Part shown: positions 13,525 through 19,992 of the stretch, piece by piece | How positions within the stretch are numbered: the stretch's first letter is position 1 | How the letters are laid out: each line of letters starts with the position of its first letter | Assembly (NCBI GenBank): GCA_963708025.1 | Contig: CAVPSB010000025.1 | Coordinates: forward strand, 160,001-224,000 | Length of the DNA: 64,000 nt | From: an uncultured Candidatus Rokubacteria bacterium | Lineage (GTDB): Bacteria > Methylomirabilota > Methylomirabilia > Rokubacteriales > DASRDR01 | Direction: 5' to 3' | Position numbers and translations under genes: made by a program | The notes under the pieces: model-generated | What the model saw: the letters and a program-made list of their open reading frames with translations, nothing else | Databases searched by the model: none | Told to the model about the DNA's origin: nothing

Positions 13525-15306
13525 CTAAGTCCCGAGCGGACGCGGCGTCTCGCCGGCCAGATCGACCAGCCACCGCCGGAGCCGGCGGTGACCCCGCAGG
13601 CGGCGCAGGTACCCGGCTTCGTCGGTTCCGCCCTTCGCCCGGATCGCCTCCAGCAGCGCGCGGCGCTCGCGCGGCCGCCAGGTCTCGAGGTCGGGGATCA
13701 GCGCCAGCACCAGGGCCAGCCGCTCGAGGGCGAGCCGCTCCGGCGGCGGCCACGCCCGCCAGCCGCCCGCGCCCAGCGCCCGTGCCACCCGCGCCGCCAG
13801 GCCGGCCGGACTCGCGTGGCGCCCGGCCGCCGCGGCCGCGGCCCGAAGCCCGAGCCGCCGCACGTCGAGCGCCGTCGCCTGGCCAGGGGCCAGCGTGGCG
13901 ATCATGCCGGCCTCGGCGAGCTGCGCCAGCGTCGCCCGTGGTGAGCGGTAGCCGGGCTCGGCGCGGATCCGCCGCCGCTCGCTCACCGCGAGGCGCGCGA
14001 TGTCCGGCCGTTCCGAGCGGAAGCCGAGCTTGTCGTAGAACCAGAAGGCCCCCGAGTCCAGCGCCTCGTCGTTCTGATAGCCGATCTGGTACCGGCTCAG
14101 CGAGACGACCCGGACGCCGAGGTGCTGGCCGAGGAACGCGAGGAGCCGGACGAAGATGAAGGCCGACTCGCCCTGACGGAAGGTCTCGAAGACGTTGTAG
14201 GCCAGCTCCACGCGCTCGAAGAGGAGCGAGGCGTCGCCATAGCCGACCGGCAGGCCGTTCTTGAGAACCAGGTACCCGTAGTGAGCCCGCAGCGGGAGCC
14301 GGTGTGCCGGCCGCAGGCCGAACCAGGCGATCTGGACGCCGCGCCCGAGATCCGCCACGCGCACGTCGGCCGGCTCGGCGAAGTTGAAGGCGTGGACCTC
14401 GCGGTAACGGACGAGGACCGCCGCCCGGGCGGCGTCGAGGAGCGCCGTCGCCTCGTCCCGTCCGGCCTGGCGGACCGCGACCGGCGCGCCCGGGAGCCAC
14501 CGCCGGAGCCGCCCGCGCACCCGCCGGAGCGGGCCGCGGTGGAAGAAGATCCGCGGCGCCGGCAGCCGGAGCCGCGTGCGCGAGGCGGGGCCGTCGCCGA
14601 GCCGCCAGCGCGTCCGCACGGCCATCGCGTCGTACGCCGCCTGCCGCGCGCCGGCGTCGGGGCCACCCGCGAGGCCGCCCAGGATCGCGGCGAGGTCGCT
14701 GCCCGGGCCCGGCCCCCGGACCGCGGCGAGCCACTCGCGGTAGGGCACGCCCACCTCCACCAGCGCCTCCTCGGCCGCCAGCCCGGAGAGCCAGGGCAGG
14801 AGCGTGCCCACCGCCGTCTCGGTCTCGGCATCCTGCCAGTCCAGCTCGACGGCGTCGGGAAAGCGCGTGGCGAGCCACCGGGCTGCCGCGTACGACAGCG
14901 GACAGTAGAGGGTGGTGCCGGCCATCCCGGTCTCGTCGAGCCGCTCGGGGTGGCCAAGGGCCGCGACGCGGGCGGGGATCGCCGCGAGCGCCTCCTCCAC
15001 CGCGCCGAGCGTCCCGGGCCCGTCCGGGTACGCCCGGAGGAAGCACAGGGCCTCGTGGTAGCGGAGCAGCAGGTCGGGCTCCCGGATCCGGCCACGGGCC
15101 AGCGCGGCTAGCAGCTCGCGCCGGGTCGCACGCTCCGCCGGGCCGAAGCCATTCTTGGTGCGCTCCAGGAGCGCGACCAGCTCGTCGATCCGGGCCGGCA
15201 ACGGGGGCTTCGGCGGACCCGCTCGCCAGTGCCGGAGCCGGGCCCCGGGGAGGCCGCGGCCGTTAACGCGACGCCGTTTCCGCGACGACGGTTTGACCTG
15301 CGACAA
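13525..15306 (-). CDS. Large hypothetical protein with a GNAT-like C-terminal region (start uncertain)
   Basis: Long ORF with protein-like composition; LKNGLPVGYG...NVFETFRQGE...NDEALDSGAFWFYDKLGFR resembles GNAT motifs A/B. Confidence 0.75.
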   Translation of the reverse strand: MSQVKPSSRKRRRVNGRGLPGARLRHWRAGPPKPPLPARIDELVALLERTKNGFGPAERATRRELLAALARGRIREPDLLLRYHEALCFLRAYPDGPGTLGAVEEALAAIPARVAALGHPERLDETGMAGTTLYCPLSYAAARWLATRFPDAVELDWQDAETETAVGTLLPWLSGLAAEEALVEVGVPYREWLAAVRGPGPGSDLAAILGGLAGGPDAGARQAAYDAMAVRTRWRLGDGPASRTRLRLPAPRIFFHRGPLRRVRGRLRRWLPGAPVAVRQAGRDEATALLDAARAAVLVRYREVHAFNFAEPADVRVADLGRGVQIAWFGLRPAHRLPLRAHYGYLVLKNGLPVGYGDASLLFERVELAYNVFETFRQGESAFIFVRLLAFLGQHLGVRVVSLSRYQIGYQNDEALDSGAFWFYDKLGFRSERPDIARLAVSERRRIRAEPGYRSPRATLAQLAEAGMIATLAPGQATALDVRRLGLRAAAAAAGRHASPAGLAARVARALGAGGWRAWPPPERLALERLALVLALIPDLETWRPRERRALLEAIRAKGGTDEAGYLRRLRGHRRLRRWLVDLAGETPRPLGT

Positions 15307-15335
15307 CCGTCGTCCCAATCCGGAACGTTTTTTAC

Positions 15336-15400
15336 TTGACACGAGTTTCACTTGCCTCTAGTGTTTCAGCGACTGCTGAAAATGACGGAACAAGTGAAAC
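15336..15400 (+). promoter_or_regulatory. Sigma70-type promoter with operator inverted repeats
   Basis: TTGACA (15336-41), 17 nt, TAGTGT (15359-64); GTTTCACTTG...CAAGTGAAAC and TTTCAGC-GACT-GCTGAAA inverted repeats. Confidence 0.75.
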
Positions 15401-15401
15401 C

Positions 15402-16448
15402 ATGGTCCGTATCAATGAAATCAAGAAGGACGCGGCCCACCGCTTGCGAGAGCTCTTTCCCCGTGCTCAGGATTGGCAGGAGCTTATGGACTCCCGTGTC
15501 GGGGAACAGACGGTCGATCTGCTCGTCCGGTTCCGGATGGGAGCGGAGGTCAAGACGCTGATCTGCGAGGCGCGCCCGGTGGGGCAGCCCCGGTACATCC
15601 GGGAGATGCTGACGCGCCTGCGAGGGCTCCGGGAGCAGGTGCCCGGCGCCTATCCCGTGACCGTGGCGCCGTACATCAGCCCGCAGTCGGCGGCGCTCGT
15701 CCGCCAGAACGGCTGTGGCTACCTGGACCTGTCCGGGAACTGCTACCTGGCCTTCGACAACGTGCTGATCGAGAAGGAGGGCAAGCCGAACGTCCGCCCG
15801 AGCAACCGCCCCCTCAAGACGCTCTTCGCGCCCCGGGCGACGCGCATCGTGCGCGCGCTGCTCGTGGACCGCGACCGGAGCTGGCGGCTCGAGGAGCTGG
15901 GCCGGGCCGCCCAGGTGAGCCTCGGCCACGCGCACAACGTGGTCAAGCGGCTCGAGGACCTCGAGTGGGTGGAGCGAAGCTCGGCCGGCCGGTTCCGGCT
16001 GCAGAAGCCCGGGGAATTGCTCGAGGCCTGGCGCGACGAGTACACCTATCGCGCCAACGGGATGGCCGCCTTCGTGGCGCCGGTGGGCGACAAGCGGCGG
16101 ATCATGGAGAGCCTGGCGCGCCAGGCGGAGGCGCTGGGGTTTCCCTACGCGTTCAGCCTGCACGCCGGGGTCTCCCTCGTCGGACCCCAGGTGCGGGTCC
16201 CCACCGTCCACTGCTACGTCGGCGGCGACCCCGAGGCCATGGCGCGCGCCCTGGGACTCCAGCCCGTGGAAGGCGAGGGGACGGTCTATCTCATGACTCC
16301 GTACGATCAGGGCGTGTTCTTCGCGCCGGTCGTGAAGAGCGGCCTCCGGGTCGTCAGCCTGCCCCAGCTCTACGTGGACCTCTACCACTACGAGCGCCGG
16401 GGCCGGGAGCAGGCCGACAAGCTGCGCCGGGACGCGCTGGGCTTCTAG
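15402..16448 (+). CDS. AbiEi_2/DUF2186-like winged-helix regulator (type IV antitoxin-like)
   Basis: APYIS...GYLDLSGNCYL, wHTH (LEELGRAAQVSLGHAHNVVKRL), PGELLEAW, VVSLPQLYVDL...RGREQA. Confidence 0.75.
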   Translation: MVRINEIKKDAAHRLRELFPRAQDWQELMDSRVGEQTVDLLVRFRMGAEVKTLICEARPVGQPRYIREMLTRLRGLREQVPGAYPVTVAPYISPQSAALVRQNGCGYLDLSGNCYLAFDNVLIEKEGKPNVRPSNRPLKTLFAPRATRIVRALLVDRDRSWRLEELGRAAQVSLGHAHNVVKRLEDLEWVERSSAGRFRLQKPGELLEAWRDEYTYRANGMAAFVAPVGDKRRIMESLARQAEALGFPYAFSLHAGVSLVGPQVRVPTVHCYVGGDPEAMARALGLQPVEGEGTVYLMTPYDQGVFFAPVVKSGLRVVSLPQLYVDLYHYERRGREQADKLRRDALGF

Positions 16449-16524
16449 GGGATCTGATCGGCCCCGCGCCGGCGTGCGCGAATCGGGGCGCGCGCGGCGG
16501 GGCCCGGGAAGGGGGTGAGAACTG

Positions 16525-16560
16525 ATGGCGACCAAGAAGAAGGCCAAGAAGAAGAAGTAG
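16525..16560 (+). CDS. Lys-rich micropeptide 1 (MATKKKAKKKK)
   Basis: SD-like GGGGGTGA, ATG...TAG; paralogous to the two following units. Confidence 0.65.
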   Translation: MATKKKAKKKK

Positions 16561-16635
16561 AGCCGTGCGACGGCGGAGCGGCCAGCCCGGCCGGCTCCGT
16601 CACTCCGATTCCACGGGAGGGAGGTGAGAGACAGA

Positions 16636-16671
16636 GTGGCGAAGAAGAAGGCGGCGAAGAAGAAGAAGTAG
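16636..16671 (+). CDS. Lys-rich micropeptide 2 (MAKKKAAKKKK)
   Basis: SD GGAGGTGA upstream of GTG; 111 bp after unit 1. Confidence 0.68.
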   Translation: MAKKKAAKKKK

Positions 16672-16746
16672 CCCGGTGTTACGGCGGGGAGGGGGTACAG
16701 CCCCTCCCCGCCTCCCCGGTGCTCCCGAAGGGAGGTGAGAGACAGA

Positions 16747-16785
16747 GTGGCGAAGAAGAAGGCCGCGAAGAAGAAGAAGAAGTAG
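16747..16785 (+). CDS. Lys-rich micropeptide 3 (MAKKKAAKKKKK)
   Basis: SD GGAGGTGA upstream of GTG; 111 bp after unit 2; synonymous GCG/GCC change and a whole-codon AAG insertion relative to unit 2. Confidence 0.68.
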   Translation: MAKKKAAKKKKK

Positions 16786-16842
16786 TGTGGGATCGGGCCG
16801 GGGGCGACTCGAACCCCCGCCCGGCACTTACTCCCGAGATTC

Positions 16843-16879
16843 GGCCGCCGAGGACGGTTGCCACCTCCTCGGCGGCCGG
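16843..16879. terminator. GC-rich hairpin between the micropeptide array and convergent rpmB
   Basis: GGCCGCCGAGGA...TCCTCGGCGGCC stem; weak T-tail. Confidence 0.4.
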
Positions 16880-16944
16880 TCGTTTCGGGCCCCTGACCGT
16901 CGCGATCTCCATGTCGGCCGTGGCCCGGTCGTTTTTCGGTCCGG

Positions 16945-17136
16945 TCACACCGCCTTGGCGACCTTGCCGGAGCGCAAGCAGCGGGTGCACACCCGGACCC
17001 GGCGGGTCCGGCCGTTCACGACCGCCCGGACGTTTGCCAGGTTCGGCAGCCATCGCCGCCTGGAGACGTTGTGAGCGTGGCTGATCTGGTTACCGACCAC
17101 GGGGCCCTTGCCGCAGTAATCGCAGCGCTGCGCCAT
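16945..17136 (-). CDS. rpmB: 50S ribosomal protein L28 (Zn-ribbon form)
   Basis: MAQRCDYCGKGPVVGNQISHAHNVSRRRWLPNL...VCTRCLRSGKV; divergent from recG. Confidence 0.96.
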   Translation of the reverse strand: MAQRCDYCGKGPVVGNQISHAHNVSRRRWLPNLANVRAVVNGRTRRVRVCTRCLRSGKVAKAV

Positions 17137-17172
17137 GCGCGACTCCTCAAAAGAAATGACGCCCCTTCTGCC

Positions 17173-17816
17173 GCGGGGCGACGCACTTCTATACCACGCT
17201 GGGAGCCGCGAAACAAGCGGGGATTTCGCGGCCAGCCCGCAACCCGGCGTCCTGGCGCGGCTTTTCGATGCGGATCGGCGAATCGCCCGCCTCAGGGGAA
17301 CCCCGGATGCCTGCGGCGAGGGGGGAGTGGGCCGATGGAACGGCGTGTGGCCGGACTGGTCACCAGCCGCAGGATGTGTTACCAACAGGCGTGCCGGTGA
17401 CGGAGCTGCTGGAGTGAACGGACAGCCAGACGAGTCGAAGCTGGACGTCGTGCGGGCCTACCTGAGCCGGGCATTTCCCGGGCACGACCAGCTCGACCAC
17501 CTGAGCCTTCGCCGCCGTGGGGTCCTCTTCCAGATCCTGAGCCGTGGGCGGCTCGTGCATCGGCTCGTCGTGCCCGAGACGTTCCTGGCGGACCACCCGG
17601 CATCGGAGATCGCAGAGCTGCTCGAGGCCCACCACATCGCGACCGTCCTCGGCCAGGCGGCCTGGCGCATCGTGGTCCTGGCGGACGACGGTCCCAGCAT
17701 CCAGGAAGAACCGACGTAGCGGCTCCGGCGCGGTGTTCGAGCACCGTCCAGTCGGTGCCGGCCGACCCCTCGGGATGACGATGGGGCTTGCTGCGGGGCG
17801 ACGCACTTCTATACCA
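17173..17816. repeat. 24-bp perfect direct repeat (17173-17196 and 17793-17816) flanking a small ORF
   Basis: GCGGGGCGACGCACTTCTATACCA at both positions. Confidence 0.9.
17414..17719 (+). CDS. Hypothetical protein (~101 aa)
   Basis: GTG start, GC3-biased codons, globular-looking sequence; no family recognised. Confidence 0.6.
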   Translation: MNGQPDESKLDVVRAYLSRAFPGHDQLDHLSLRRRGVLFQILSRGRLVHRLVVPETFLADHPASEIAELLEAHHIATVLGQAAWRIVVLADDGPSIQEEPT

Positions 17817-17826
17817 TGAACGCGCG

Positions 17827-19992
17827 GTGACACAAGCCCGCCCGCCTGGCCGGTCCCCCGAAGTCCTCGCGGCGCCGGCCTCCCCGAGCGCCCCCCCCGC
17901 GATCCGGGACAGCGAGGGCGGACTCGGCATGGCGCTCCAGTACCTGAAGGGCGTCGGCCCCCAGCGGGCCCGCCTCCTCGAGCGGATCGGGCTGCGCACC
18001 GTCGGTGACGCCCTGGACCGGTTCCCCCGCCGCTACGAGGACCGCCGCGAGGTGGTGCCGTTCCGGAAGCTCCGGGTCGGGGAGGCCCAGCCGACCGGTG
18101 GGACGGTCGTGGGCGTCTCGGCCCCGCCCCGCGGCCGGTCGCGCGTCCCCCTGACGGTCCTCTTCCGGGACCAGTCCGGCTTCTTCTCGGGTCTCTGGTT
18201 CAACCAGCCGTACCTGGCGCAGCTCTTCAAGCGCGGCCAGCGCGTGTTCCTCTACGGCAAGGTCGTCCCGGGCCGCGGCCGGGGCCCGCTCCAGATGCAG
18301 AACGCGGAGTTCGAGATCGTGGAGGACGACGAAGAGGCCTCCCTTCACATGGGGCGCATCGTGCCGGTCTACGGCCTCACCGAGGGGCTCACCCAGCGGC
18401 CGATGCGGAGCCTGCTCCACCGGATCGTCGAGCGTCACGCGCGGGAGGTCACCGACGCGCTGCCGGAGGCGCTGCGCCGGCACCGCGATCTCCTGCCGGC
18501 CGCCGAGGCATACCGGGCCATCCACTTCCCGGACGCGCTGGAGGCGGCCGAGGCCGCGCGCCGTCGCTTCGTCTTCGAGGACTTCCTCCTGCTCCAGGTC
18601 GGGCTCGCCATCCGGCGCCGTCGGGAGGCCGCCCGGCCCGGCCACACCATCGCGCCGCCGGGCCGGCTGGTGGCGCGCCTCCTGGAAGGCCTCCCGTTCA
18701 CGCTGACGGCCGCCCAGCGGCGCGTGTGGGAGGAGATCCGGGCGGACCTCGCGCGGCCGACGCCGATGAACCGCCTGCTGCAGGGCGACGTCGGCTCCGG
18801 GAAGACCGTCGTGGCGGTCATGGCGCTGCTGACCGCCGTCGAGGCGGGGTTCCAGGGCGTCCTCATGGCGCCGACCGAGATCCTGGCCGAGCAGCATTTC
18901 GGCACCGTGCAGCGCCTCGTCGAGCCGCTCGGCCTGCCGCTGGCGCTGCTCAGCTCCGGCCAGAAGGGCAAGGCGCGCGAGGCGGCGCTGGCCGCCGTGG
19001 CCAGCGGGGCCGCGCCGCTCGTGGTCGGCACCCATGCCCTCATCCAGGACGCGGTCCTCTTCCACCGGCTCGGCCTGGCCGTCGTCGACGAGCAGCACCG
19101 CTTCGGCGTCCTTCAGCGGGCGACGCTGCGGGCGAAGGGCCGGCACCCCGACGTGCTGGTCATGACCGCGACGCCGATCCCCCGCACGCTCGCCCTCACG
19201 CTCTACGGGGACCTCGACGTCTCCGTGCTCGACGAGCTGCCGCCGGGCCGCCAGCGCATCACCACGGCCTGGCGCTCCGAGGCCAAGCGGCGGGAGATCT
19301 ACGACTTCATCCGGAAGGAGCTGGAGCAGGGCCGCCAGGCCTACGTCGTCTATCCGCTGGTGGAGGAGACGGAAGCATCCGACCTGAAGGCGGCGACGGC
19401 GATGGCCGACCGCCTCGCCCGGGAAGTGTTCCCCGACCGCCGGGTGGGCCTGATCCACGGCCGCCTGCCCTTCGACGTCAAGGACACCGTCATGCGCGCG
19501 TTCAAGGCCGGCGAGCTCGACGTGCTGGTCGCCACCACCGTGATCGAGGTCGGCATCGACGTGGCGAACGCCAGCGTCATGCTGATCGAGCACGCCGAGC
19601 GCTTCGGCCTCGCCCAGCTCCACCAGCTCCGCGGGCGGGTCGGGCGGGGCCCCGCCCGCTCCTACTGCATCCTGCTCGCCTCGGGGCTCCTCTCGGACGA
19701 GGCGCAGCGGCGGCTCCAGGCGATGTGCGAGACGCAGGACGGCTTCCGCATCGCCGAGGCCGACCTGGAGATCCGCGGCCCGGGCGAGTTCTTCGGAACC
19801 CGCCAGGCGGGGCTGCCCGAGTTCCGGGCGGCGAACCTGCTGACCGACGCCCGCCTGCTCGAGGAGGCCCGCCAGGACGCGCTCGCCCTCGTCGAGCGCG
19901 ATCCCGGCCTGCGCCTTCCGGAGCACCACGCCCTCCGTGACGCGCTGGTCAGCCGCTGGCGCGAGAAGCTCGACCTGGCCTCGGTGGGCTAA
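17827..19992 (+). CDS. recG: ATP-dependent DNA helicase RecG (start 17827 or 17929)
   Basis: LKGVGP, PRRYEDR, LLQGDVGSGKT, DEQHRFG, MTATPIPRTL, HAERFGLAQLHQLRGRVGRG, DLEIRGPGE. Confidence 0.97.
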   Translation: MTQARPPGRSPEVLAAPASPSAPPAIRDSEGGLGMALQYLKGVGPQRARLLERIGLRTVGDALDRFPRRYEDRREVVPFRKLRVGEAQPTGGTVVGVSAPPRGRSRVPLTVLFRDQSGFFSGLWFNQPYLAQLFKRGQRVFLYGKVVPGRGRGPLQMQNAEFEIVEDDEEASLHMGRIVPVYGLTEGLTQRPMRSLLHRIVERHAREVTDALPEALRRHRDLLPAAEAYRAIHFPDALEAAEAARRRFVFEDFLLLQVGLAIRRRREAARPGHTIAPPGRLVARLLEGLPFTLTAAQRRVWEEIRADLARPTPMNRLLQGDVGSGKTVVAVMALLTAVEAGFQGVLMAPTEILAEQHFGTVQRLVEPLGLPLALLSSGQKGKAREAALAAVASGAAPLVVGTHALIQDAVLFHRLGLAVVDEQHRFGVLQRATLRAKGRHPDVLVMTATPIPRTLALTLYGDLDVSVLDELPPGRQRITTAWRSEAKRREIYDFIRKELEQGRQAYVVYPLVEETEASDLKAATAMADRLAREVFPDRRVGLIHGRLPFDVKDTVMRAFKAGELDVLVATTVIEVGIDVANASVMLIEHAERFGLAQLHQLRGRVGRGPARSYCILLASGLLSDEAQRRLQAMCETQDGFRIAEADLEIRGPGEFFGTRQAGLPEFRAANLLTDARLLEEARQDALALVERDPGLRLPEHHALRDALVSRWREKLDLASVG

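Follow-up and report, generated by a model that had tools for sequence, protein, structure and literature searches.

The described systems closest to the element reported here are tiny ribosomal proteins, histone H1-like proteins, a protamine-like peptide of Escherichia coli and the leader peptides of attenuators. The element is an array of three lysine-rich micro-open reading frames (micro-ORFs) in a 64,000-nucleotide stretch of the genome of an uncultured Candidatus Rokubacteria bacterium (assembly of 8.17 Mb, 71% GC). The whole stretch, which lies on contig C25, is called the window below. The array had been noticed in a first-pass annotation, which a model made from the sequence alone and which recognised no described system with such a layout.

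Ribosomal proteins of the bS22/eL41 class have a mixed arginine/lysine composition with specific residues, are encoded by single-copy genes and reach up to 33 residues. According to PMC10618245, bS22 of Borrelia consists of lysine and arginine to 61%, starts with GUG, had remained unannotated and was found by cryo-electron microscopy (cryo-EM) together with a translated search. The same paper gives 24 residues for eL41 and coordinates from which we count about 30 residues for the Borrelia protein, and its authors expect further unannotated cases. In Bacteroidia, the gene of bL38 adjoins that of bL28, as stated in PMC11851116. The proteins bS22, eL41 and mS38 (also bL37 and bTHX) share with the micro-genes a very small size, a very basic composition and a frequent lack of annotation. 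In contrast to the 24-33 residues of the bS22/eL41 class, however, the micro-genes mostly encode 11-13 residues (55 of the 57 micro-ORFs of the anchored set introduced below), and these are lysine-only and of low complexity. In addition, the micro-genes differ from this class in their two to four copies per genome and in their variable tail length.

Lysine/alanine-rich H1-like proteins, such as chlamydial Hc2, the H1-like proteins of Burkholderia and the PAKKA-type tails of actinobacterial HupB, have the same AKKKAAKKKK-type composition. They are, however, about 100-200 residues long or form tails on folded domains, whereas each "repeat unit" of the array is a complete gene, repeated as DNA, with its own Shine-Dalgarno (SD) site and stop codon. 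The E. coli tpr gene (b1229) is a 29-residue basic, "protamine-like" ORF on a short stable RNA (RttR, from the tyrT transcript) with a strong promoter of the stable-RNA type, but its product is arginine-rich and unrelated in sequence to the micro-genes. To our knowledge tpr has no assigned function, and we know of no conservation beyond the enterobacteria. Attenuator leader peptides (hisL, pheL, thrL, trpL) are likewise short ORFs ruled by one codon type, and a free-standing fourth copy of the micro-gene resembles them in having a terminator and then a gene on the same strand. The differences are that no antiterminator was found, that the array has no downstream gene, that there is no link to lysine genes, and that residues other than lysine are conserved.

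Searches for known families gave little. Forms of 22-47 residues found in relatives matched no family in Pfam or NCBIfam, and when the 47-residue form was compared with candidates of 25-83 residues, of which 8000 were scored, no homologue appeared at E values up to 0.001, so that public protein sets give no indication in either direction. No match to PF07382 or NF038052/NF038053 exceeded the cut-off; an 89-residue relative came nearest to Hc2, with 21 bits for PF07382 (cut-off 40) and 16 bits for NF038052 (cut-off 135), and the 22-47-residue forms scored nothing. We found no description of such peptide strings or lysine-rich micro-genes in the literature, subscription journals being outside the coverage. 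Together with an empty Rfam search, these results agree with the first-pass annotation, and the poly-lysine micro-genes appear to belong to no described family.

The micro-ORF array and its conservation in Rokubacteriales

All three micro-ORFs lie on the forward strand and end in TAG. Micro-ORF 1 (16525-16560) starts with ATG and encodes MATKKKAKKKK, micro-ORF 2 (16636-16671) starts with GTG and encodes MAKKKAAKKKK, and micro-ORF 3 (16747-16785), also with a GTG start, encodes MAKKKAAKKKKK. The SD sites, read in the sequence on the same strand, are GGGGGTGAGA at 16511-16520 for micro-ORF 1 and GGAGGTGAGA at 16620-16629 and 16731-16740 for micro-ORFs 2 and 3, respectively. Their consensus is GG(G/A)GGTGAGA, 4-6 nt upstream of each start; the spacing from SD to start is unequal among the units, and a fixed-spacing pattern matched nothing. 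Micro-ORFs 2 and 3 differ by a change from GCG to GCC at codon 6 and by one additional AAG codon. Three lysine-rich micro-ORFs with extended SD sites and TAG stops, two of them separated by a synonymous change and a whole-codon insertion, are just what the first-pass annotation had reported. It had also described an exact 111-bp period; the start-to-start distances are indeed 111 and 111 nt in this genome (repeat families D1/D2), but in relatives the tandem spacing ranges from 92 to 146 nt, and only 10 of the 27 spacings are divisible by three.

A search of related genomes for the pattern, which the annotation had proposed, was carried out with a degenerate M-A-K3-A2-K4 query. Exact matches were obtained in 35 of the 61 genomes of the order and matches with at most three mismatches in 59, while a reversed-pattern control gave 0/61 in both searches. 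When the phylum was sampled with at most two mismatches, 120 of 201 genomes matched; within the families of the own order the figures were 16/16 (f1), 96/125 (f2), 1/1 (f4) and 1/1 (f5). These tallies take in three unpublished genomes (G038, G055 and G119), one row each, and no result hangs on them alone. In 30 loci from the pattern search (L001-L030), all 52 lysine-rich ORFs have 11-13 codons, an SD site containing GGTGA and a stop directly after the lysine run, and they are mostly arranged as tandem pairs or triplets.

We also assembled an anchored set from the best 30 loci found by the protein encoded upstream of the array alone, so that the ORF sequence was not used. In 30/30 of these loci, one to three intact SD-led micro-ORFs, 57 in all and with an SD site of the GGAGGTGA type, lie between the stop of the upstream gene and rpmB, and tblastn placed rpmB in convergent orientation in 30/30. 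The 57 micro-ORFs have 11 (28), 12 (18), 13 (9), 15 (1) or 17 (1) codons; 44 start with ATG and 13 with GTG; 39 stop at TAG, 18 at TAA and none at TGA. The commonest peptide is MAKKKAAKKKK (23/57). In some loci of family f2 (L169, L172, L174 and L175), the first unit is instead a Lys/Arg-rich ORF of 22-23 codons with its own SD site; these ORFs are comparable in size to eL41 and bL37 but match no curated family.

The pattern of variation looks like that of sequence under coding selection. In the anchored regions, 108 of the 113 runs of at least three AAR codons are in frame within micro-ORFs, and the other five lie inside 22-23-codon polybasic ORFs that replace the first unit. A column analysis was made for one genus with 14 genomes. 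There, 63 of 75 columns inside the ORFs do not vary, compared with 73 of 220 outside them. Of nine variable ORF columns, six are third codon positions, and the rest are one ATG/GTG start, one change from Ala to Thr and one switch between stop and Lys. Gap runs within the ORFs number 13, every one of them 3 nt long, whereas 79 of the 125 outside are 1 nt. The alanine codons of the anchored ORFs are GCG (113), GCC (42), GCA (7) and GCT (4). Frame-breaking changes or loss of the SD or start, by which the first-pass annotation would have recognised a simple AAG microsatellite, were not seen in 57 ORFs at 30 loci: each of the 57 keeps SD, start, frame and stop. Its proposal of selection on the peptide is therefore supported: the micro-ORFs form a conserved family of genes whose constraint is of the coding type, and they carry signals typical of efficient translation.

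The choice of stop codon is unusual for the genome. Frames of at least 600 codons end in TGA in 1764 of 2656 cases (66%), in TAG in 787 and in TAA in 105 (4%), and the anchored micro-ORFs have TAA in 32% and TGA in 0/57. The stops may derive from lysine codons by one change (AAG to TAG, AAA to TAA), since a switch between stop and Lys is visible within the 14-genome genus; alternatively, TAA may be favoured as in highly expressed genes. Taking all 190 complete micro-ORFs, a TGA stop occurs in none, though the genomes mainly use TGA. The use of AAG alone for lysine, which the first-pass annotation had pointed out, is true of the array but ordinary under the bias of a genome with 71% GC: the ratio of AAG to AAA is 33 : 5 in four neighbour genes and 17606 : 1890 in frames of at least 600 codons.

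There is next to no chance that the array is an AAG microsatellite without meaning, or a by-product of some longer gene that overlaps it. Long open frames do overlap it in this genome, namely a 189-codon frame on the forward strand (16515-17084) and a 75-codon frame on the reverse strand (16600-16827), because 111 is a multiple of three. However, such frames cannot be conserved, as the spacing is a multiple of three in just 10/27 of the relatives' cases, and against a microsatellite stand the empty reversed-pattern control (0/61) and units that are in frame, SD-led and changed by 3-nt indels only.

The annotation had further stated that unrelated hairpins separate the units. A GC hairpin does follow each ORF, and all three are predicted on the forward strand in minimum free energy (MFE) folds: one in spacer 1 (16574-16607, inverted repeat I2), a perfect 12-bp hairpin in spacer 2 (16683-94/16701-12, inverted repeat I10, 100% complementary) and one 3' of micro-ORF 3 (16795-16822, read in the sequence). 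The spacer-2 hairpin, after micro-ORF 2, is however similar, by eye, to a hairpin conserved after ORF1 in the sister genus g5. Between the array and rpmB there is a perfect 13-bp hairpin (16842-54/16866-78, assigned to neither strand; I7, 100% complementary, MFE fold), followed by GTCGTTTC. It is probably a terminator for one or both directions, and its counterpart is almost invariant in genus g5. The MFE fold of 16449-16900 is dominated by GC-rich inverted repeats (z = -3.9 against 100 shuffles). Rfam gave no match over 14000-19000 at E values up to 1, and ARAGORN found no tRNA or tmRNA in the array region; a tRNA-like reading of the hairpin after micro-ORF 3, which contains TCGAACC, was rejected on these two empty results.

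These hairpins bring up the possibility that the RNA is the product and the frame incidental. The RNA would then be a small RNA or a sponge, binding through its purine-rich AAG/GGAGG stretches a protein, the 30S subunit or pyrimidine-rich RNA. Sponge RNAs such as CsrB and RsmZ consist of repeated hairpin units, and the array, with a hairpin in every repeat, is built in a similar way; the extended SD sites could hold 30S subunits, and short contigs from RNA libraries carry single units. We nevertheless judge an RNA product very improbable. The variation is synonymous and at third positions, with all four bases at alanine codons; indels are of 3 nt only, start and stop are kept in 57/57, and the stop always stands directly after the lysine run. 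In addition, Rfam has no match at E values up to 1, and AT-rich archaea keep the peptide while the nucleotide sequence differs considerably.

The flanking genes and the free-standing copy

The first-pass annotation had placed the array between an AbiEi-like gene and a convergent rpmB, and both flanks were recovered. The upstream gene (15402-16448, forward strand) encodes a protein with a PD-(D/E)XK-nuclease-like N-domain, a winged helix and an AbiEi_2-like C-domain, as assigned from Pfam, a structural model and Foldseek. The Pfam match to AbiEi_2 is weak (21.8 bits, cut-off 21), MarR/IclR helix-turn-helix (HTH) families stay under the cut-off, and the NCBIfam search and a sequence search of PDB chains were both empty for this protein. 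An AlphaFold (AF2) model was built from an alignment of 28 orthologues (predicted local distance difference test, pLDDT, 79), and a single-sequence model (pLDDT 45) was discarded. In Foldseek, the N-domain of the model resembles NucS/EndoMS and MspJI (E about 4e-4 to 1e-3) and the middle part MarR/IclR. By its model, the protein looks like a DNA-binding one of nuclease type. It was detected in 61 of the 61 related genomes of the order and is a core gene there; no AbiEii partner was seen beside it. This query did not find the protein in five unrelated carrier genomes, and therefore the micro-gene is independent of the upstream gene. On the other side, rpmB (ribosomal protein bL28; 16945-17136, reverse strand, by translation and tblastn) ends the intergenic region of the array with its stop and is followed by recG. 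For an ORF of 608 residues (13525-15351, reverse strand), which diverges from the putative operon, neither Pfam nor NCBIfam gave a match at E values up to 0.01.

A promoter-like site on the forward strand was read in the sequence at 15336-15364; it comprises TTGACA (15336-41), a 17-nt spacer and TAGTGT (15359-64), with a T-run just upstream. This site, which is absent from the output of a simple consensus scan, belongs to the promoter type that also precedes the free-standing copy and may work as the operon promoter. The TTG start listed at 15336 for the upstream gene would then be the -35 hexamer, and the real start is probably ATG 15402, since many orthologues begin aligning near there. In the sister genus, the first micro-ORF begins about 20-35 nt past the stop of the upstream gene, and in the window no promoter-like TTGACA is visible by eye before ORF1. 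Therefore, the upstream gene and the array are probably co-transcribed, which is the simplest reading.

The position next to rpmB bears on the idea that the peptide is a specific, stoichiometric ribosomal micro-protein, that is, a short analogue of bS22/eL41/mS38, bL37 or bTHX which sits in an rRNA pocket and has escaped annotation through its size. The peptide is extremely basic and its gene is a core gene of the order with perfect SD sites and a consensus promoter; it adjoins rpmB in 30/30 loci. A search of the whole own genome with PF08213 (COX24_C), which we take to be the Pfam family covering bS22, gave nothing at E values up to 10, and the genome yielded no further short polybasic ORF led by an SD site. 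The ribosome idea is kept alive by the place beside rpmB and by this lack of a bS22-type gene, and precedents are on record in two reports, namely the unannotated bS22 of Borrelia (PMC10618245) and bL38 beside bL28 (PMC11851116). On the other hand, 11-13 residues are about half of the 24 that the former report gives for eL41. The length of the lysine tail differs even among tandem copies, the sequence is lysine-only and of low complexity, and three to four copies per genome would be unusual. Moreover, rpmB is convergent and belongs to another operon, and outside the order the neighbours are unrelated. We therefore regard a pocket-bound ribosomal protein as unlikely.

A genome-wide scan for short ORFs with at least 50% lysine returned the three ORFs of the array, one further copy and three unrelated short matches only. 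The fourth copy lies at C19:322347-322382 on the reverse strand, and its peptide is identical to that of micro-ORF 2. One to three tandem copies plus one separate copy per genome fit the dosage amplification suggested in the first-pass annotation. Across 17 loci, the free-standing unit consists of a T-rich stretch, TTGACA, 17 nt, a -10-like hexamer, a leader hairpin, an SD site of the GGAGGTGA type (GGGGGTGA in some copies), the ORF, frequently encoding MAKKKATKKKK, and a terminator with an 11-bp GC stem and a short T-run. The leader hairpin and the terminator both show compensatory changes across the 17 loci. The annotation had called the genes highly expressed; the support for this is indirect, in the form of perfect SD sites, the consensus promoter of the free-standing copy, the enrichment of TAA stops and the RNA-library contigs.

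In 16 of the 17 loci (L016 at G000:C19:320850-323882, and L190-L205), a gene of the EamA transporter family follows 46-150 nt downstream of the free-standing unit on the same strand. Such a layout recalls a cis-acting leader, in which translation of the lysine codons would sense charged tRNA-Lys or the supply of ribosomes and control termination, RNA stability or the expression of a neighbour gene, as in hisL, pheL and trpL, the peptide itself being irrelevant. Classical leader peptides are rich in codons for the sensed amino acid, and 7-9 of the 11-13 codons are for lysine here; the free-standing copy has a promoter, the ORF, a strong terminator and EamA on the same strand in 16/17 loci, and ftsK comes after the unit, in the same orientation, in spirochaetes. 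However, the array has no same-strand downstream gene in 30/30 loci, because rpmB is convergent, and several copies elsewhere are convergent with their neighbour. The consensus fold of the 17 free-standing units contains the leader hairpin and the terminator only and no competing antiterminator. No lysine biosynthesis gene or lysS was seen beside any copy, the non-lysine residues (Ala2, Ala/Thr at 6-7) are conserved as well, and three leaders in series have no known precedent. The leader explanation is accordingly assigned a low probability, slightly below that of the ribosomal protein. A pairing of the SD with bases 3' of the terminator in the free-standing unit was also considered and discarded, as it is weak, mostly G-U and without compensatory change. 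Directly before the EamA start, many of the free-standing-copy loci have a conserved TGGTAGGGT-like motif, which suggests that the EamA gene could have its own promoter and perhaps a leaderless mRNA.

The promoter type can be followed through the genome. The pattern [AT]TTT-N3-6-CTTGACA occurs at about 24 distinct sites (35 overlapping matches, merged) in the 8.17 Mb; they cover both micro-ORF units, a nine-copy gene family and, by eye, one site 5' of a tRNA-like gene. In the nine-copy unit, a promoter of the GCATTTTC-N-CTTGACA type, as in the free-standing micro-gene, stands before a conserved leader about 230 nt long, after which a paralogous gene begins. The copies lie at C2:142791(-), C12:280042(+), C13:410545(+), C13:589758(+), C14:245777(+), C15:235158(+), C16:125(-), C19:85451(+) and C28:5945(-), and the N-terminus of this family presumably resembles HNH proteins of the DUF222/REP13E12 type.

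Occurrence beyond the order

For a scan across phyla, one genome per species was searched for GGTGA, a gap of 4-9 nt and the exact peptide, which gave at least 116 loci. Among the matches listed, 130 of 134 are ORFs of 11-13 codons (one cut by the locus end), and the other four are longer forms of 19 (in locus L034), 25, 47 and 89 codons with the same first 11 residues. The 133 complete ORFs among the matches listed stop at TAA (93) or TAG (40) and never at TGA. Of the 80 titled loci among them, 51 are from Rokubacteria/Methylomirabilota and 29 from other groups, namely Woesearchaeota, Nanoarchaeota, other archaea, Spirochaetia, FCPU426, Nitrospirae, Brocadiales, Eisenbacteria, Planctomycetota, Parcubacteria, Bdellovibrionales and further groups. 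Several of these others are high-GC contigs with neighbours of the Rokubacteria type (L056, L066, L071, L074 and L082). The low-GC loci (26-58% GC) have gene contexts of their own: the unit lies between glmM and ftsK in spirochaetes and FCPU426 (with ftsK on the same strand in spirochaetes), between TatD and a metallophosphoesterase in Woesearchaeota, and in an LpxC neighbourhood in Nitrospirae. The spirochaete copies have TTGACA/TATAAT-like promoters and T-tailed terminators, and the archaeal copies have AT-rich upstream regions. In the order of the spirochaete, 12 of 24 genomes match. A phage origin was rejected, with 0 matches in 2.9 million viral contigs.

Codon usage was compared with the surroundings in the AT-rich hosts. 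In three AT-rich archaeal loci, the micro-ORFs have 13 AAG to 8 AAA, against 23 to 89 in the flanking genes (Fisher p = 0.0003), a preference in keeping with a translated frame that avoids slippery A-runs. The spirochaete copies showed no shift towards AAG relative to their flanking genes.

A precursor of a modified or exported product, whether RiPP-like, acylated or a substrate of an ATP-grasp-type enzyme, has also been considered. Very small precursor genes exist, such as that of the heptapeptide MccA; one archaeal copy adjoins a RimK-type ATP-grasp gene, and the free-standing copy adjoins a transporter gene. However, no modifying or export neighbour is conserved across lineages in 26 diverse loci, where a Pfam search on 150 flanking ORFs revealed no shared neighbour at all. 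The peptide has neither a leader/core organisation nor a signal peptide, and the upstream gene of the order is nuclease-like and was not found in the five unrelated carriers. A precursor role thus ranks with the RNA product, or even slightly lower, among the poor explanations.

Some further observations concern individual loci. In L034 and L104 the longer forms adjoin RF-1 and PrmC genes, which may be coincidence. Two single archaeal cases have an SD-led short ORF directly after the micro-ORF: in L035 it is lysine-rich with a Cys-rich tail, and in L073 it is strongly acidic and has 23 codons. In a third archaeal locus, L047, the micro-gene is preceded at a distance of about 90 nt by a tRNA-like 3' end (GGTTCAAATCC type), which recalls the tRNA-linked tpr of E. 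coli.

What the peptides may be

That the frames are translated at all is, taking the evidence together, quite probable. Each unit would then make an 11-13-residue MAKKKAAKKKK(K)(K). As methionine aminopeptidase (MetAP) removes Met before Ala, the initiator Met would be lost before Ala2, leaving an oligolysine of 10-12 residues with a charge of about +8 to +10. The operon would run from the promoter at 15336-64 through the AbiEi_2-like gene to the distal micro-ORFs and end at the hairpin at 16842-78, each micro-ORF having its own near-perfect SD and then a stable hairpin, and the free-standing copy would serve elsewhere in the genome as a gene with promoter, leader, ORF and terminator. The product would be the peptide itself, and its ligands ribosomal or other RNA, or DNA, by analogy with histone H1-type tails, protamines and tiny basic ribosomal proteins. 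Translation, abundance, removal of Met and the binding target are all things that we infer.

On balance we lean towards the view that the peptide is a small, abundant and diffusible polycation which binds polyanions (RNA, ribosomes, DNA) by charge. Cations of valence three or more condense nucleic acids, and natural ORFs of 19-89 residues begin with the same 11 residues and merge gradually into H1-like K/A proteins; for these reasons a generic RNA, ribosome or DNA ligand is favoured. The variable tail length and the multiple copies are easier to reconcile with a role through bulk charge than with a fixed pocket. A necessary replacement of missing polyamines was rejected, because genes of the spermidine-synthase family score over the cut-off in the own genome and in three of four other carriers. 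With genes for polyamine synthesis present, the peptide is not a forced substitute, and its role may be parallel to that of polyamines.

Parts of 16100-17400 are contained in contigs from four RNA libraries of four studies. A 161-nt contig covers 16514-16668, i.e., ORF1 to ORF2, with one mismatch, a 108-nt contig covers 16532-16639, contigs of 428 and 530 nt connect the upstream gene with the end of ORF1, and numerous contigs of 100-270 nt from relatives bear an SD and an ORF. These contigs lend weak support to transcription of the array. Gaps in the contig cover (16804-16891 and 17200-17400) and a higher summed depth over the ORFs were rejected as evidence, because these are contigs and AAG stretches attract foreign ones.

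Several points weigh against the polycation reading. The RNA evidence consists of assembled contigs, for which carry-over of DNA is possible, and low-complexity AAG stretches draw in contigs of other organisms. Within the order, the related genomes are not independent, and the counts therefore overstate the statistics. In the sister orders of the class only 5 of 57 genomes match, mostly off a start codon, and in the order of the Woesearchaeota carrier only 3 of 61; with such scarcity, the family is not universally needed. The high-GC contigs with Rokubacteria-type neighbours may be mis-binned, as the bin assignments of metagenome-assembled genomes can be wrong. The identity across phyla is partly a matter of ascertainment, since the scan asked for this exact peptide, and it could also have arisen through convergence. 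Both translation genes and DNA-metabolism genes adjoin copies, giving no consistent functional hint, and the EamA gene behind the free-standing copy in 16/17 loci also matches the layout of a leader-peptide attenuator.

A wider version of the polycation view is possible but rather doubtful. The micro-genes would form a family that spans domains and comprises the smallest stand-alone protein genes seen so far in cellular genomes, making oligolysines of 10-12 mature residues in bulk from tandem, individually translated micro-cistrons for a specific target, either as a ligand of the ribosome or nucleoid or as a polyamine-like pool of counter-ions. The family would be core to Rokubacteriales and would have been repeatedly acquired by DPANN archaea, spirochaetes, Nitrospirae and anammox bacteria.

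Gene callers throw out ORFs of this size, and a gene that is core to a whole bacterial order and also occurs in archaea has therefore been overlooked. The family is readily testable, as the peptide can be synthesised and the gene has a textbook promoter, SD site and terminator, and it bears on how ribosomes handle short poly-lysine frames. It also supplies a search image for more such genes: a perfect SD, M-A-K3, a pair of A/T/G, K4-6, and TAA or TAG. Should the peptides be made, the smallest conserved stand-alone genes would have a size of only 11 codons, and a new class of cellular polycation would stand beside polyamines, H1-like proteins and tiny ribosomal proteins.

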